Part shown: positions 16,311 to 49,581 of the stretch, in pieces
Numbering within the stretch: the stretch's first letter is position 1
Layout of the letters: each line of letters begins with the position of its first letter
Source of the DNA: Bacteroidaceae bacterium
Lineage (GTDB): Bacteria; Bacteroidota; Bacteroidia; Bacteroidales; Bacteroidaceae
Assembly (NCBI GenBank): GCA_045591315.1
Contig: JAZNSN010000026.1
Location: 48,170-112,169 of the forward strand
Direction: 5' to 3'
Length of the DNA: 64,000 nt
Notes under the pieces: model-generated
Told to the model about the DNA's origin: nothing
Database searches by the model: none
Seen by the model: the letters and a program-made list of their open reading frames with translations, nothing else
Position numbers and translations under genes: made by a program

Positions 16311-16314
16311 GTTG

Positions 16315-44380: not shown

Positions 44381-45385
44381 TTACAGCTTGCCTCCTATTG
44401 AAAGAAGCAACTCCTCAATGTCTTTTCTTATGCGCTTGTAAGGCGCAGACTCCTTGTAATTGGTGTTCTTGGTGAGCATCAATGCAACATCGCACTGTCC
44501 GTGCCGGTACGATGCAAGTTCGTTGTTGTACTGCTGACGGTGGTATGCAAGGCGTTTGATTTCCTCCTCGCGTTTGTTGCGAAGGTGACGGCATACGGGA
44601 ACAAGAATGCGTAGCACTACACTGTTCATGATATGGTGCCCCTGTATATATAAATATGTCTCTTCCGGTTTCACGCCCAATGCAACAAGCTCTTGTTCTA
44701 TTCTTTTCTGCTCCTCGATAAAGTTAGGGAATCTCTTCTCAAGTAGTGCGATGTTATGCTCTACACGTCGGCTCAGCTGCTGCAAAGAGTAAGCCGGGTT
44801 GCCTATGCTGAATGAACTTAGCCTGACAATTTCGCAGAACTTCAGCATACTCATGCTTCGTGTGTCCTGTTTGCGGTATAGCAGGATGTTCCATGCAAAT
44901 AGCGGATAGCATATCTGTGAATAGAGTTTCATGAAGCTGTTGAAATCCATAACTTCCTTGTCGTTTAGGGTACTCAATACACAAATCTGCTTGAGGCTGT
45001 CGGAGTAGCATCTGAAGTTGTCAATAGCGTATGCGTATGTATGCAGTATATATCTGTTGTTTATTATCTTCTGTGATGTGCTTGTCGCCCCTTGCAGAAG
45101 GTAGTCGTAGTCGCTGTCAACACATGCAATCATATTCTTTCCGTATGCGTTGCCCAGCATGTTCATCATGGCCTGCTTCTTACCTTTTGTAAGGTTCGTA
45201 CGTGCGGGGAGCATCACTTCGAAATGGTATTTGTCGCTTTCGAACTCATCGAATACAGAACGCCAGAACGAGATGTCATCATAGCTCTCGACGTATGCAA
45301 TGATGCGATGTCTTGCCTTCTTCGGCCGCAATGAGTTCGCAGCCTCTATGAATGCGGAATTGAGGTATTCGGTCAGCTTCTTCAT
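44381..45385 (-). CDS. DUF4435/Toprim-like protein (AriB-like candidate effector), 334 aa
   Basis: It has an N-terminal RIIAYVESYDDISFW segment (a VEGxDD-type acidic motif) and an ACVDSDYDYL segment (DxD), in the order expected for DUF4435/Toprim. It lies 15 nt downstream of the ABC-type ATPase gene. Confidence 0.55.
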   Translation of the reverse strand: MKKLTEYLNSAFIEAANSLRPKKARHRIIAYVESYDDISFWRSVFDEFESDKYHFEVMLPARTNLTKGKKQAMMNMLGNAYGKNMIACVDSDYDYLLQGATSTSQKIINNRYILHTYAYAIDNFRCYSDSLKQICVLSTLNDKEVMDFNSFMKLYSQICYPLFAWNILLYRKQDTRSMSMLKFCEIVRLSSFSIGNPAYSLQQLSRRVEHNIALLEKRFPNFIEEQKRIEQELVALGVKPEETYLYIQGHHIMNSVVLRILVPVCRHLRNKREEEIKRLAYHRQQYNNELASYRHGQCDVALMLTKNTNYKESAPYKRIRKDIEELLLSIGGKL

Positions 45386-45400
45386 GCCGTGCCTCCTGCT

Positions 45401-46240
45401 TTACTTTATGATATCGCCTATCTCAGTGACAGCATCCATCCAGCCGTCCATGACAATGGCTGGAGAGTGGGTGCATAGTATAATCTGTGTGTTGGGGTTG
45501 AGGGTTCGCACCAGAGTTATGAGTTTCTGCTGCCACTCTATGTGCAGCGAAATCTCCGGTTCGTCCATAAGCATTACCCCCGGCCGGTTCTCCTGCACAA
45601 GTGCTGTCAGAAGTATCACAAGTATCTGCTTCTCGCCCGATGACAGCATGTAGGGCTGTATGGTTTCCCCGTACTGGTTGAAAAGAATCTCGTTGCTCTC
45701 GCGTGCAATGCTCTTTGCGGTAGGTGCGAACAATTCGTCTATTAGGTCCTGGAACTGTTTCTTTGGTTTGCTCAGTTCTGTTGCAAGCCGTTGGTCATCG
45801 GGGCTGTTCGATGTCAGCAGCTTTATTATGCGGTTGCCGATGTTTACCTGGTAGTTCAGGTAGCGGCGCTGCAGGTTGTAGAGCTGCCAGTCGAGTTCGG
45901 TGCGTATGTCGGCTCCCGAAACCTTTTCGAGCATCTCGCTGCTCATTATCGGGCGGTCGATGCTGCTTATCACGTCGAAGCAGATGCTTGTTGCATCCTC
46001 CGGATAGAAGCTTATGTGTACACCGTCCTGCGGGTTGCTTGTAAGGCGTCCCTCCTTCATCACTTTAAGGTGACTTGCCGAACGGTTTATGATGGTGCTC
46101 TTGCCTACACCGTTGCTTCCGCTTAGAATATTTACATCGGGACGCAGTTCCCAATAGACGTGTCTCCTGTTGCTCCAAAGCGAGTCAATCTCAATGCTTC
46201 TGATGTATTGCGCCATCTTTTCCATATCCGTATAGTCCAA
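45401..46240 (-). CDS. Small ABC/SMC-type ATPase (AAA_21/AAA_15-like; AriA/OLD-class), 279 aa
   Basis: It has Walker A GSNGVGKST, signature LSSGEKQ, Walker B VMLMDEPE, D-loop SLH and H-loop CTHSP. Confidence 0.7.
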   Translation of the reverse strand: MDYTDMEKMAQYIRSIEIDSLWSNRRHVYWELRPDVNILSGSNGVGKSTIINRSASHLKVMKEGRLTSNPQDGVHISFYPEDATSICFDVISSIDRPIMSSEMLEKVSGADIRTELDWQLYNLQRRYLNYQVNIGNRIIKLLTSNSPDDQRLATELSKPKKQFQDLIDELFAPTAKSIARESNEILFNQYGETIQPYMLSSGEKQILVILLTALVQENRPGVMLMDEPEISLHIEWQQKLITLVRTLNPNTQIILCTHSPAIVMDGWMDAVTEIGDIIK

Positions 46241-46308
46241 TAGTTAAACCGTCTGATGCAAGGAGTCTCCCGGCATAATGAACCGGCTTTTGCAAGTGCC
46301 GGCCTACG

Positions 46309-46316
46309 CAAATATA
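46309..46316 (-). promoter_or_regulatory. -7 box (TATATTTG on the minus strand) for the ATPase/DUF4435 pair
   Basis: This is an exact TAnnTTTG match, 69 nt upstream of the ATG at 46240. Confidence 0.4.
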
Positions 46317-46449
46317 TGATAAAGTTTTATAAAAAGGAAACAGAGCACCGTTTTTGGTATAAATGATACCGTAAATGTCCATATTCAGGCTTTATGTTTA
46401 AAATAAGTGAAATTTGTCATTATTCCCTTTGTGTGATGCAAAATGTTCT

Positions 46450-46457
46450 TATCTTCG
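46450..46457 (+). promoter_or_regulatory. -7 box (TATCTTCG)
   Basis: It lies 23 nt upstream of the ATG at 46480 and inside the ORF-track extension that starts at 46414. Confidence 0.4.
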
Positions 46458-46479
46458 CAATGGTAACCGCGTGTCGGTC

Positions 46480-48144
46480 ATGCGGTATAAAGATAATATC
46501 ATGCTACGTATCTATTGCAGAAATAATGGAGAAACAAAGGAGTTCCCCAAAGGGGTGACTCTAAGGGAGATTTATGACGGTTTTGCACTGGAGATGCCTT
46601 ATGGCGTGCTGGCTGCAAGAGTGAACAATGTAACAGAAGGACTTGCCTTGCGCATCTACAGGCATAAGGATGTCGAGTTCATCGACATTACCTCGAATGA
46701 CGGAATGCGCATGTATGTGCGTTCTCTCACGTTCATATTCATGAAGGCCATGAACGAGATGTTCCCCGGCGAGACGGTACGTTTCGAGAATGCGATATCA
46801 AAAGGCTATTACTGCAGGATGAACCGTCCGGTTACAGAAGAGCAGGTCGATGCCGTGCGTAGCCGTATGAAGGAGATTATAGCGGGTGACATTCCCTTCA
46901 AGCGTGTGGAGTGCCATACTCAGGATGCGATAGATATTTTCGCAAGCATGGGGCGTGTTGACAAGGTACGTCTGCTTGAGACCTACGGCCGTCTATACAC
47001 TAGCTACTATGAACTTGACGGCTATGTCGATAGCTACTATAACGGCCTTGTCCCAAGTACAGGGTATATAGGACTTTTCGATATCGAAAAATTCGCTGAT
47101 GGTGTTCTGTTGCGAGTTCCGAATAAGGAACGTCCTACGGAACTTGAGGACAAGATTCCGCAAGAGAAGCTTCAGGAACTGTTTGAAGAGCGTCTGCAAT
47201 GGCATCAGAAGATGGGCGTCGAGACAATTGGCGATTTCAACAAGGGGGTTCATGCCGGGTATGGCGTTGACCTGGTAAATGTTTCCGAAGCATTGCAGGA
47301 ACGCCGTTTGTCGCAGATAGCCGATATGGTACATGAACGGGGTGCGCGTGTGGTGCTTATAGCTGGTCCTTCGTCATCGGGGAAGACAACGTTCAGCAAA
47401 CGTTTGAGCGTACAGCTTCTTGCATGCGGTCTAAAGCCTTATGCCATTTCGCTTGACGACTACTTCGTGAACCGGACAGAGACTCCGCGAAAACCCGACG
47501 GCGACTACGATTTCGAGTCCATACACTCGATAGATCTTCCCTATTTCAACGATTCCCTGACAAGGATTCTTGCAGGCGAAGAAGTCGAACTGCCATACTA
47601 TAACTTTGTCAAGGGCGAACGGGAATACAAGGGCAATACTCTGAAGCTTACGCCTCAGATGGTGCTTGTCATCGAAGGAACGCATGCCCTTAATCCGATG
47701 TTGACAGCGCAGGTCGATGACAAGGAGAAGTTTCGCATATATGTTTCGGCACTTACATCTATAAAGCTCGATTACCACAACTATATTTCGACATCGGACA
47801 GCCGGTTGCTGCGCCGTATGCTGCGCGATTCCAAGTACCGCGGTTATTCGGCTGTAGAGACAATAAGCCGTTGGCCCGATGTCCGAAAGGGAGAGGAGGA
47901 GTGGATTTTCCCGTATCAGGAGAACGCCGATGTCATGTTCAACTCATCGCTGTTCTATGAACTTGCAGTCTTCAAGTCACAGGCCGAACAGCTGTTGCGC
48001 ACGGTGCCGGAGAATATAAAGGAGTATTCCGAGGCACAGAGGCTTTTGCGCTTCCTCGATTATATTGTACCTTTGCAGGACGATGAGCTGCCTCCTACTT
48101 CGGTTGTGCGTGAATTCCTCGGTGGAAGCAGTTTTAAATATTGA
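46480..48144 (+). CDS. Uridine/nucleoside kinase-family P-loop protein with an N-terminal TGS/ThrRS-like domain
   Basis: It has the P-loop GPSSSGKTTFSKRL in the C-terminal half and a beta-grasp-like N-terminus (MLRIYCRNNGETKEFPKGVTLREI). The ATG at 46501 is an alternative start. Confidence 0.65.
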   Translation: MRYKDNIMLRIYCRNNGETKEFPKGVTLREIYDGFALEMPYGVLAARVNNVTEGLALRIYRHKDVEFIDITSNDGMRMYVRSLTFIFMKAMNEMFPGETVRFENAISKGYYCRMNRPVTEEQVDAVRSRMKEIIAGDIPFKRVECHTQDAIDIFASMGRVDKVRLLETYGRLYTSYYELDGYVDSYYNGLVPSTGYIGLFDIEKFADGVLLRVPNKERPTELEDKIPQEKLQELFEERLQWHQKMGVETIGDFNKGVHAGYGVDLVNVSEALQERRLSQIADMVHERGARVVLIAGPSSSGKTTFSKRLSVQLLACGLKPYAISLDDYFVNRTETPRKPDGDYDFESIHSIDLPYFNDSLTRILAGEEVELPYYNFVKGEREYKGNTLKLTPQMVLVIEGTHALNPMLTAQVDDKEKFRIYVSALTSIKLDYHNYISTSDSRLLRRMLRDSKYRGYSAVETISRWPDVRKGEEEWIFPYQENADVMFNSSLFYELAVFKSQAEQLLRTVPENIKEYSEAQRLLRFLDYIVPLQDDELPPTSVVREFLGGSSFKY

Positions 48145-48153
48145 TTGGCTTTA

Positions 48154-49581
48154 ATGGGAAAGCATACTACATATACACAGACACAGGAACAGACACTTGC
48201 GCAGACTCTCTCGCCTCAACAGCTGCTTGCAGTGCAGCTTCTGGAGCTTACGACGGTTGAGATAGAGGATCGTGTGCGAAGCGAGATTATGGATAATCCC
48301 GCTCTGGAGCCCGTGGAGCATGACGAAGAAGGCGATGTCGGAAAAAGCAGTGAAGAACTGTTAGAGGCTCTCTCTATGGACTGCGATGACGATTACAGCG
48401 GCAATGAGGATATTCAACCAGTTTCGGGAGGTGGCTATTGGAATGATATTCCTATAGGTGATACCCTCTCGTTTGGAGATACTCTGATGGAACAGTTGGG
48501 CGAGTGTTCTCTTACGCCGGTCGAAAGAGCTGTCGGGGAGTATATAATAGGCTCGCTTGACGAGGACGGTCTTCTTCGCAAGTCCTTGCAGGAGATAGAG
48601 GATGAACTTCTTGTATATAATGGAGTAGATGCCAATGAAGATATAATTATTTCTGTTCTATCAAAGATACAATCCTTTGAACCGGCTGGCATTGCCGCCC
48701 GTGATCTGCAGGAGTGCCTTCTTTTGCAGTTGGCACGTATGGATTCGGGCAAGGATGTCGCGCTTAGCAAGGAGATTGTTTCCAATCATTACGACGATTT
48801 TGCAGGAAAGCGTTGGGATCAGATAGCCGACAAGATAGGCATAGGCAAGGAAGAGTGCCGTGATGCGATAGCCGATATCATACGCCTTAACCCGCGTCCA
48901 GGCGCTTCGCTTTCCGAAAATGTTGGCTTCAGCCGCCAGCAGATAGTGCCCGACTTTCTGCTCGATGTGAGTGATGATATGGTGTCCGTTGCTTTGAACA
49001 ATGCCCATGTTCCATCGTTGAAGGTCAGTGACAGCTATATGCAGATGCTTGAAGAACATGTATCCGGCAACAGTGGCGAGCAGAAGGACGCTGCGCTTTT
49101 CCTTAAGCAAAAGATAGACTTGGCAAGAGGCTTTATAACAGCTGTGCAGCAACGTGAGCAGACGATGCTCTCTACGATGCGTGCCATAGCGTCGAAGCAG
49201 AAGGAGTTCTTCCTCAGTGGAGGCGATGAAGCCTTTCTTAAGCCGATGATACTTGAAGACATTGCAAAAATGACAGGCTACGACATATCAACTATATCAC
49301 GCGTAGGCAACAGCAAATATGTCCAGGTCCCTTGGGGCATTTATCAGCTTAAGTATTTTTTCAGTGACGGTGTAGTGAAGGATGACGGCTCGAAACAGTC
49401 GGTGTATGAGCTTTTCCGTATCCTGCGCGAACTTGTCGATAACGAGGACAAGGCTTCACCTTTGACCGACCTGTCATTGCAGGAAGAACTTGCGTCTATG
49501 GGGTACAGCATAGCACGGCGTACAGTTGCCAAATACCGTGAACAGCTTGGCATTCCTGTCGCAAGGTTGCGTAAGGAGTAA
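48154..49581 (+). CDS. rpoN: RNA polymerase sigma-54 factor
   Basis: It has an N-terminal Gln/Leu-rich region (QTLSPQQLLAVQLLEL), an acidic region II, and the C-terminal RpoN box IARRTVAKYRE. I prefer the ATG at 48154 over the TTG at 48145. Confidence 0.9.
   Translation: MGKHTTYTQTQEQTLAQTLSPQQLLAVQLLELTTVEIEDRVRSEIMDNPALEPVEHDEEGDVGKSSEELLEALSMDCDDDYSGNEDIQPVSGGGYWNDIPIGDTLSFGDTLMEQLGECSLTPVERAVGEYIIGSLDEDGLLRKSLQEIEDELLVYNGVDANEDIIISVLSKIQSFEPAGIAARDLQECLLLQLARMDSGKDVALSKEIVSNHYDDFAGKRWDQIADKIGIGKEECRDAIADIIRLNPRPGASLSENVGFSRQQIVPDFLLDVSDDMVSVALNNAHVPSLKVSDSYMQMLEEHVSGNSGEQKDAALFLKQKIDLARGFITAVQQREQTMLSTMRAIASKQKEFFLSGGDEAFLKPMILEDIAKMTGYDISTISRVGNSKYVQVPWGIYQLKYFFSDGVVKDDGSKQSVYELFRILRELVDNEDKASPLTDLSLQEELASMGYSIARRTVAKYREQLGIPVARLRKE

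Follow-up and report, generated by a model that had tools for sequence, protein, structure and literature searches.

Two adjacent genes in the 64,000-nucleotide stretch of DNA analysed here (contig JAZNSN010000026.1 of a Bacteroidaceae bacterium, positions 48,170 to 112,169 of the forward strand; in the following, the window) encode a short ATPase of the ABC (ATP-binding cassette) type and a DUF4435 protein of the Toprim type. With a probability of roughly 0.55 we regard this locus as a fixed, vertically inherited, short-type module of the PARIS family (phage anti-restriction-induced system), in which the ATPase gates a Toprim nuclease. This reading is carried by the matches of both proteins to profiles of the PARIS components AriA and AriB, and by the retention of the pair at one junction, between trkH and a kinase gene, in all closely related species that we compared.

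Assignment to the PARIS family

The ATPase matched the Pfam families AAA_21 (2.3e-17, 64.5 bits) and AAA_15 (2.5e-17, 64.0 bits), and aligned end to end with the PADLOC model PDLC04164 for AriA (2.9e-55, 186 bits, positions 3-251 of 253). The second protein, called the nuclease in the following, matched DUF4435 (PF14491; 3.3e-47, 161.7 bits, residues 27-269 on model positions 2-234 of 238) as well as the PADLOC models for AriB, PDLC02983 (1.1e-54) and PDLC04165 (3.1e-37 over positions 8-274 of 289). The published detection rule for PARIS demands an AAA_15 match of at least 32 bits or an AAA_21 match of at least 27 bits together with an adjacent DUF4435 match of at least 27 bits (Rousset 2022 / DefenseFinder; PMC9122126). 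The pair passes this rule, exceeding all thresholds with its two genes 15 nt apart on the same strand. No NCBIfam family scored above its cut-off for either protein. Taken together, the profile searches support placing the locus, as a module of an ABC ATPase and a DUF4435/Toprim protein, in the PARIS family, and PARIS is also the label to be expected from automated tools. The class proposed in the first-pass annotation, a PARIS/OLD-class ATPase with a DUF4435/Toprim partner, was thus borne out by Pfam, PADLOC and the published rule.

Identity with the Septu protein PtuA was rejected, since the PADLOC PtuA models reached at most 84 bits (compared to 186 bits for AriA), the NCBIfam PtuA model reached 55 bits with a cut-off of 500, and the partner is not an HNH nuclease. 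A subunit of an ABC transporter was rejected, too: ABC_tran gave 28 bits, no NCBIfam transporter family came near its cut-off, the adjacent gene encodes a DUF4435 protein and trkH is convergent.

PDLC04164 and PDLC04165 were the best models for all short-type pairs tested, i.e. those from Klebsiella and Psychrobacter plasmids, from a provirus contig and from Bacteroides. The short class is already catalogued, as PADLOC-DB v2 contains these two models dedicated to it.

Conservation at the trkH/kinase junction

Using the neighbouring kinase as an anchor, we collected 46 loci from species-representative genomes. Forty of these, with a kinase 81-97% identical to that of the window, belong to uncultured Bacteroidaceae metagenome-assembled genomes (MAGs), mostly from the hindguts of ruminants and other herbivores. 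All 40 hold the ATPase at the same trkH/kinase junction, and the nuclease follows wherever the contig continues. The six distant loci (Bacteroides, Phocaeicola, Lentimicrobiaceae; kinase at most 73% identical) have neither the pair nor the adjacency to trkH. As trkH and the kinase gene are not adjacent at all in these relatives, an empty site cannot be shown.

Intact reading frames were found for all 45 ATPase copies and all 43 nuclease copies. Among 37 genomes, the median amino-acid identity was 87.6% for the ATPase and 77.0% for the nuclease, compared to 82.9% for TrkA, 82.8% for the kinase, 75.6% for TrkH and 69.1% for RpoN. The nonsynonymous divergence (dN) in the same genomes was 0.078 and 0.157 for the ATPase and the nuclease, respectively, and 0.116-0.241 for the neighbours. 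No other gene at the locus, be it trkA, trkH, the kinase gene or rpoN, evolves as slowly as that of the ATPase. The ratio dN/dS was about 0.05-0.09 (about 0.09 for the nuclease), values that are approximate since the synonymous divergence (dS) was saturated (1.5-2.1). Pairwise distances calculated for the pair were correlated with those for the neighbouring genes (Mantel r=0.79, with 0 of 2000 permutations as high); the housekeeping genes gave 0.81-0.90 among themselves.

The region is syntenic and of housekeeping content, with ispG, purE, FBPase, rpoN, the kinase gene, the pair, trkH, trkA and dxs. No mobility genes were found in this neighbourhood, and neither an integrase nor repeats near the pair, in agreement with what had been noticed from the window alone. 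There is no tRNA gene near the pair either, the only one in the window being located at 16314. The GC content of the pair (0.45-0.52) is similar to that of the flanks and shows no anomaly. In this herbivore-gut Bacteroidaceae clade the pair is fixed, vertically inherited and under purifying selection of housekeeping strength.

In six related species 0.3-1.8 kb of extra DNA is present between the DUF4435 gene and trkH (e.g. L001 9953-11403, L014 6962-7843, L031 6847-7542, L046 6265-7944; locus coordinates). The extra genes encode secreted lipoprotein-like proteins with a DLGLPSGLKWA...YYAWGE motif and, in one species, a 559-aa Ser/Thr-kinase fused to a sulfatase-modifying-factor-like domain, both recognised by eye and not by a hidden Markov model (HMM). 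A defence hotspot on the trkH side of the junction was rejected, as motif inspection of these lipoprotein-like and kinase-fusion inserts revealed no evident defence function.

Two further observations concern the kinase gene itself (46414-48144, plus strand). The TTG with which its mechanically called open reading frame begins lies far ahead of the conserved start, homologs being called at 547 aa. In two related MAGs (L019, L026) the high-scoring segment pair of the kinase contains an in-frame stop, so that a pseudogene or an assembly error is possible there.

Distribution beyond the clade

Bacteroides finegoldii and Phocaeicola massiliensis possess orthologs that are 57% (ATPase) and 50% (nuclease) identical to the window proteins and are located at another site, next to genes for a DMT transporter and an MscS channel. 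Since the divergence of the pair from its Bacteroides ortholog equals that of the kinase (58% identity), these orthologs fit a pair that has been passed on vertically since ancient times and has changed its locus. In RefSeq the Bacteroides ATPase is a MULTISPECIES entry occurring on at least 1000 contigs, and the 90% cluster to which its partner belongs has members from B. thetaiotaomicron, B. finegoldii and B. zhangwenhongii. Two records named as plasmids and carrying hits of 50-55% identity (NZ_OY725943.1, 'plasmid 41', and OY726067.1, 'plasmid: 93') were not taken as evidence of mobility; they come from one study, are non-mobilizable and have neighbours of chromosomal type. These PLSDB records (L136, L137) contain genes for alpha-2-macroglobulin, meaB, a DMT transporter, an MscS channel and a TonB receptor, and are probably chromosomal contigs.

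In other phyla, the settings of the short module resemble those of typical selfish or defence cargo. A 4.4-kb ColE1-type Klebsiella plasmid and a 5.2-kb mobilizable Enterobacter plasmid carry little else apart from genes for replication and mobilisation. The module also adjoins parA/parG on a Psychrobacter plasmid, occurs on provirus-type contigs and was found at one locus next to a HindVP restriction enzyme and a methylase. Among 5426 complete E. coli genomes 20 (0.4%) have a short pair; strain 042 is not among them. Among 50,697 phage records, tblastn found no match to the DUF4435 protein.

E. coli 55989 (NC_011748.1 309357-311313; L142 9013-10969) and the O104:H4 lineage carry a short pair composed of a 327-aa ATPase and a 326-aa DUF4435 protein. 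The pair of strain 55989 is situated at the end of a satellite-like integrated element (with Icd-like, DUF927, PerC and ProQ/FinO genes), by a truncated LysR gene and the pao operon. Furthermore, a contig of an uncultured Rikenella (L131 8001-8855; also L132 and L133) has a gene for a short AriA-type ATPase of 284 aa that is not accompanied by a DUF4435 gene. It is preceded by a GC-rich stretch of about 1.4 kb without a convincing open reading frame, and a macB-type permease gene follows downstream on the other strand. This ATPase could be an orphan, or its partner could be encoded elsewhere.

The ATPase

The two co-oriented open reading frames of the pair, both on the minus strand as are all features described below, were confirmed at 44381..45385 (334 aa, starting with ATG) and 45401..46240 (279 aa from a TTG). 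The length of 279 aa given in the first-pass annotation for the ATPase is correct for the open reading frame, but the gene most likely starts at the ATG at 46225 and not at the upstream TTG at 46240, since nearly all homologs are 274 aa long and the PADLOC model match begins at residue 10. We therefore describe the ATPase as a 274-aa protein of the short AriA type (45401..46225, stop codon 45401-45403), a designation based on the Pfam and PADLOC matches, the match to the solved E. coli AriA chain 8ux9_B, the AlphaFold2 model and its fold matches.

The motifs named earlier for both proteins are all present and were mapped; with 3.3e-47 for Pfam DUF4435 and 2.9e-55 for PADLOC AriA, the set exceeds chance by far. 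In the ATPase these are the Walker A motif or P-loop GSNGVGKST (residues 36-44; 46094..46120), the ABC signature LSSGEKQ (residues 194-200; 45626..45646), the Walker B motif VMLMDEPE (residues 217-224; 45554-45577) and the H-loop CTHSP (residues 251-255; 45461..45475). G36, G39, G41, K42 and T44 of the P-loop are invariant in the family alignments A1 and A2; L194, S195, G197, E198 and K199 of the signature, D221 and E222 of Walker B, and T252, H253 and P255 of the H-loop are invariant, too. The family thus retains a complete ABC ATPase motif set, with K42, S195, D221/E222 and H253 as its key residues; in E. coli PARIS, defence depends on the ATPase. K42 of Walker A and S195 of the signature lie 153 aa apart, and not about 120 aa as had been estimated.

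Walker B is followed by SLHIEWQ (residues 226-232), the two together spanning 45530..45577. In the alignment to 8ux9_B this region is nearly identical to E. coli AriA DEPEISLHIDWQ, both proteins having a DEPEISLHI(E/D)WQ segment in common. E230, a conserved acidic residue, corresponds to D401 of E. coli AriA, a residue for AriB docking, and Q233 takes the place of AriA E404. 8ux9_B is the closest solved relative at sequence level (3.5e-16, 62.7 bits), PtuA reaching at most 40.6 bits. A fold search with the AlphaFold2 model (predicted local distance difference test, pLDDT, 78.7; predicted template modelling score, pTM, 0.80) gave PtuA and AriA chains as best matches (E about 1e-9, template modelling score 0.45-0.56).

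Of the 464 residues of E. coli AriA only 6-46 and 365-436 align, and the unaligned middle part comprises 143 aa in the window protein compared to 318 aa in E. coli. As had been suspected, the ATPase is shorter than AriA; the difference to the solved E. coli protein is about 175 aa and includes the region for hexamerisation and trigger binding. The model consists of the ABC head and a single two-helix hairpin (residues 110-169; 45719..45898) built from helices 110-138 and 142-169. This hairpin is all that is left of the coiled-coil/insertion region of E. coli AriA. It is nearly invariant in the clade (entropy 0.00-0.33).

The highest entropy within the clade was observed for residues 51-80 (45986..46075), with 0.58-1.04 per 10-residue block compared to a mean of 0.30. 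In alignment A1 this segment, right after the P-loop helix, is also the site of a 50-60-aa insert in family members of 310-350 aa. Because variation concentrates there and the family uses the position as an insertion hot spot, residues 51-80 are the best candidate for a specificity or sensing surface.

The short ATPase is a real and broad class and no truncation artefact: an exhaustive HMMER search of 1.84 billion cluster representatives yielded 293 clusters at E<=1e-30, mostly of 270-350 aa and with invariant ABC motifs. Two unusual architectures were noted among the proteins found. In P0242 (476 aa) a topoisomerase-like Toprim N-terminus precedes a part that is 67% identical to a short AriA and comprises its C-terminal two-thirds, the protein being either a fusion or a chimeric gene call, and P0389 (465 aa) is a short AriA with a helical C-terminal extension of about 180 aa.

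The DUF4435 nuclease

The nuclease (44381..45385, 334 aa, stop codon 44381-44383) is a DUF4435 protein of the Toprim type and the putative counterpart of AriB, as indicated by Pfam, PADLOC and the AlphaFold2 model. This model (pLDDT 80.5) has a beta-alpha-beta N-terminal domain and a helical C-terminal domain, and the N-terminal secondary structure alternates between strand and helix as expected of a Toprim fold, the Toprim half being of moderate confidence (pLDDT 50-77).

The catalytic acidic residues of E. coli AriB are E26, D30, D88, E90 and E122 (PMC10802264, PMC11464382). A parallel pattern is present in the window protein. YVESYDD (45275..45295) contains the putative catalytic residues Glu33 and Asp37, corresponding to E26/D30, and is the only segment that hhalign aligned to classical AriB (VEGRDD). 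CVDSDYD (45104..45124) provides a DxD putative metal-binding motif with D90 and D92, corresponding to D88/E90. The fifth acidic residue is D122 in YAIDNF (45014..45031), a Glu in most relatives, in the nearly invariant column of alignments A3/A4 that would match E122. Among 14 diverse DUF4435 partners, no variation was seen at E33, D37, D90 and D92, and hardly any at E/D122. While E33/D37 were matched to the classical VEGRDD by hhalign, the other acidic residues were related to AriB by order and spacing. The same applies for a basic patch, KGKK (residues 67-70; 45176..45187), with an invariant K69 at the start of helix 69-79. Its distance from the catalytic Glu is that of K60/K64 in E. coli AriB, to which it may correspond, judging from spacing only. 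In AriB, K60/K64 grip the anticodon loop of the tRNA (PMC12409363).

For comparison with a classical long-type system we used a pair from Pseudoalteromonas, with an AriA of 460 aa and an AriB matching 8ux9_A at 6e-70. This classical AriB had no Pfam DUF4435 match at E<=0.01 and reached 39 bits on PDLC02983. The window nuclease scored 162 bits on Pfam DUF4435 and 184 bits on PDLC02983, and the Bacteroides ortholog 171 and 235 bits, respectively. Since the window nuclease and classical AriB match the same DUF4435-derived HMM (PDLC02983) over the same model range (184 vs 39 bits), their homology is supported, but it is remote and direct alignment fails. On these scores the window nuclease would represent the core or archetype of DUF4435 and the AriB studied so far a remote outlier. 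PARIS detection with Pfam thresholds may consequently miss classical systems and favour the Bacteroides-like class. The Pseudoalteromonas AriB (pTHAF3_a, L141 3797-4729; 6e-70 to the solved AriB) is named 'DUF4435 domain-containing' by RefSeq despite having no Pfam match at E<=0.01.

Operon structure and promoter

The ATPase and nuclease genes are separated by a spacer of 15 nt (45386..45400), the junction of the operon; in distant relatives the two genes overlap or abut. The nuclease gene ends 5 nt from the stop codon of the convergent trkH, which belongs to a trkA-trkH operon. A Bacteroidetes-type -7 promoter box TATATTTG (TAnnTTTG) was located at 46309..46316, 91 nt from its first base to the ATG and 84 nt from its last base. 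The two gaps and the box had been correctly placed in the first-pass annotation. With 38 occurrences observed and 36.9 expected, TAnnTTTG is present in the window at chance frequency. Nevertheless, every related locus examined has such a box 25-128 nt upstream of the ATPase start, and it is this recurrence, and not the frequency in the window, that makes the box meaningful. The pair is a two-gene operon with a conserved Bacteroidetes-type promoter of its own.

Between box and ATG lies the 5' leader of the operon (46226..46308), in which a GC-rich inverted repeat (GGCCGGC...GCCGG) was read from the sequence. The length of the leader is not conserved across species and ranges from 25 to 128 nt among the loci. 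The repeat (GGCCGGCACTTGCAAAAGCCGG...GCCGGG) is present in the genome of the window and in its closest relative (L005); most other species lack it, and in most of them the promoter box is only about 33 nt from the ATPase start codon. Rfam searches gave no RNA element in or around the gene pair, the leader included, and scans for sigma-70 promoters and intrinsic terminators gave nothing above chance.

Proposed mechanism and alternative explanations

Most likely, judging by homology, the ATP-bound ATPase would form a head-to-head dimer that keeps the Toprim nuclease inactive over the nucleotide-binding interface. A signal perturbing the ATPase cycle would free the nuclease, which could then dimerise and cut tRNA or another structured RNA, resulting in a stop of translation and in abortive infection or growth arrest. 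The alignment points to an AriA-like head with a retained AriB-docking segment and to the absence of the helical bundle which builds the AriA hexamer and binds Ocr. Because the bundle is missing, the assembly is probably a simple ATPase dimer, and the trigger-sensing surface would have to differ from that of E. coli AriA; the variable segment 51-80 and the invariant two-helix hairpin are candidates for it. The RNA target is not transferable from E. coli PARIS, because the two nucleases are so remote.

Several observations weigh against the reading as a PARIS module. Searches of the nuclease against the PDB, either directly (phmmer) or with a profile of 14 sequences, recovered no AriB, and the same was found for the short-type DUF4435 partner from Klebsiella. 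A Foldseek search of the nuclease model, whose Toprim half has a pLDDT of 50-77, against the PDB and BFVD gave nothing significant. When the DUF4435 alignment was compared to classical Pseudoalteromonas AriB by hhalign, the probability was 0.8% and only the catalytic VE..DD motif was aligned. The AriB residues R28 and R31, which form salt bridges with AriA in E. coli, are Tyr35 and Ile38 here. Strict conservation and the slowest rate at the locus are unusual for an anti-phage system and fit a cellular role equally well. Finally, no experimental or structural study of the short-type class was found in the literature, and no report of an abortive-infection phenotype, of a trigger among anti-restriction proteins or of tRNA cleavage, the traits of E. 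coli PARIS, for any short-type pair. In this respect the earlier idea of an uncharacterised minimal clade holds, whereas its novelty does not, as the class is already modelled in PADLOC-DB v2 (PDLC04164/PDLC04165).

A serious rival, at a clearly lower probability than the PARIS reading, is that the pair descends from PARIS/OLD stock and has been domesticated for a cellular function with no part in phage defence, such as an ATP-regulated processing or quality control of tRNA or rRNA or a stress-induced translation brake. A housekeeping role would account for intact copies at one syntenic site in 40/40 species and for an ATPase slower than trkA, trkH, the kinase and rpoN, with distances co-varying with those of the housekeeping neighbours. 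The divergence of the Bacteroides ortholog (57% identity for the ATPase, 50% for the nuclease), close to that of the kinase (58%), and the occurrence of this MULTISPECIES protein on at least 1000 contigs point in the same direction, as do surroundings of housekeeping genes only, in which the occasional inserts are without evident defence function (by motif inspection only). Furthermore, the housekeeping enzyme RNase M5 is the nearest structural relative of AriB (PMC10802264, PMC12409363). Elsewhere, however, the same short module is selfish or defence cargo, on tiny plasmids, in proviruses, in a satellite-like element and in 0.4% of E. coli genomes. The locus differs between genera (trkH/kinase here, DMT/MscS in Bacteroides), a Rikenella genome has the ATPase alone, and a literature search gave no documented housekeeping role for any DUF4435 protein.

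Tentatively, one may go further and regard the Bacteroidaceae-type pair, to which the Pfam model fits best, as the canonical DUF4435 system, and not the E. coli system after which PARIS was named. In Bacteroidaceae the module would have been inherited vertically and at housekeeping grade from a time preceding the separation of Bacteroides, Phocaeicola and this clade. An ATPase dimer of minimal build, with no dedicated sensor domain, would then gate a Toprim RNase in response to an internal cue, such as translation or nucleic-acid stress, and not to a phage protein. If true, the pair would be either a domesticated system of RNA processing or translation control, or an immune sensor of the 'guard' type that watches over a conserved host process.

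A toxin-antitoxin-like addiction module, in which the ATPase is kept because its loss unleashes a toxic nuclease and which persists selfishly without benefit to the host, appears improbable. E. coli AriB is indeed toxic, with AriA as its antitoxin and chaperone (PMC10802264), the 4-5 kb plasmids on which the short module is the near-sole cargo beside replication and mobilisation genes offer a setting typical of addiction modules, and the Psychrobacter plasmid copy adjoins parA/parG. But addiction leaves the toxin gene itself unprotected, and at the saturated dS of 1.5-2.1 inactivated nucleases or double deletions would be expected; instead, all 43 nucleases are intact, with a dN/dS of about 0.09 and invariant catalytic residues. 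Moreover, deletion of either gene was non-toxic in E. coli B185 (Rousset et al., PMC9122126).

The first-pass annotation had proposed a defence islet inserted at the trkH/kinase junction, here taken to mean a recent acquisition of variable presence, and although the orientation opposite to both neighbours, the own promoter, the very tight trkH junction and the mobility of the family in other phyla would suit it, this view is hardly tenable in the light of the same junction in all 40 related species, purifying selection, co-phylogeny with the neighbours, a flank-like GC content of 0.45-0.52, the lack of integrase, repeats or tRNA nearby, and the lack of an empty site among distant relatives. 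Strict conservation at this locus, which that annotation had itself named as an outcome that would refute it, is what was observed.

Implications

What is currently understood about PARIS comes from a single system of E. coli, whose AriA forms a hexamer and detects phage proteins with its helical bundle. The window pair belongs to a large class, catalogued and unstudied, that does without this bundle. Since the nuclease of this class appears to be the true DUF4435 core and the studied AriB a remote outlier, a 'PARIS' label set by automated tools, in Bacteroidales or in other groups, need not stand for the mechanism or target that have been published. The core-gene behaviour of the module in at least one lineage of gut Bacteroidaceae is unusual for an abortive-infection system. 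If it serves defence, it would offer a minimal model of an ABC ATPase gating a Toprim toxin and a candidate for a constitutive barrier to gut phages. If not, it would exemplify how a module of defence type can be recruited to the RNA metabolism of the host.

Comparison with known systems

PARIS of E. coli B185 (AriA of 464 aa and AriB of 316 aa; PDB 8UX9, 8V45-8V49) has the same arrangement of an AAA_15/21 ATPase gene followed by an adjacent gene for a Toprim protein of the DUF4435 class. Its ATPase head can be aligned to that of the window pair (E=3.5e-16), with a near-identical DEPEISLHI(D/E)WQ, and the five-residue acidic Toprim pattern is shared as well. In contrast to the window ATPase with only its two-helix hairpin, the E. 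coli AriA possesses IS1/IS2 and a four-helix coiled-coil bundle. This region provides the second dimer interface of the hexamer (F230/F234/F238/Y304) and both positively charged loops implicated in Ocr binding (113-124 and 161-174) (PMC11464382, PMC10802264). E. coli AriB docks on the AriA head-head interface near D401/E404 (PMC11464382); it is not directly alignable to the window nuclease. Moreover, the E. coli system is mobile cargo of a P4 satellite, while the window pair is fixed and syntenic across its clade. Experimental assays of PARIS comprise E. coli B185 and a 'distant homolog' from O42 only. DefenseFinder reports PARIS in B. fragilis NCTC 9343 (PMC13139388), a system that may or may not be orthologous to the window pair.

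The Septu and retron-associated PtuA proteins (PDB 8EE4, 9N6C, 9KJX and others) belong to the same AAA_15/21 ABC-ATPase superfamily and were among the top fold matches (E about 3e-9). They differ by their size of 390-550 aa, by long helical inserts and by their partner, the HNH nuclease PtuB, in place of a DUF4435 protein. The OLD family (P2 Old of class 1, Gabija GajA of class 2), in which PARIS has been filed as class 4 (PMC11464382), shares the logic of an ABC ATPase combined with a Toprim domain. Old and GajA, however, are single-polypeptide fusions of the two domains and GajA cooperates with the helicase GajB, whereas the window encodes two proteins and no helicase. AriB-type Toprim domains are reported to lack the Lys needed for DNA cleavage by OLD proteins and to resemble RNase M5 (Deep et al., PMC10802264), which was reported as the closest structural relative of the AriB active site (PMC12409363, PMC10802264). 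Like the proposed nuclease, RNase M5 is a two-metal Toprim RNase encoded by a conserved chromosomal gene, which matures 5S rRNA in Firmicutes, but it is a monomer without an ATPase partner. A PDB sequence search and Foldseek gave no match of the window nuclease to RNase M5.

Closest to the window pair is the short class of PADLOC, represented by Klebsiella pK708696-4, Enterobacter pE-CRECL423, the Psychrobacter plasmid and the element of E. coli 55989 / O104:H4. These systems have the same best models and invariant motifs, and combine an ATPase of 274-340 aa with a DUF4435 protein of about 330 aa, the genes overlapping or abutting. They are 20-45% identical to the window proteins, usually carry the 50-60-aa insert after the P-loop helix, and are mobile and patchy in distribution, whereas the window copy represents the shortest form and is core to its clade.

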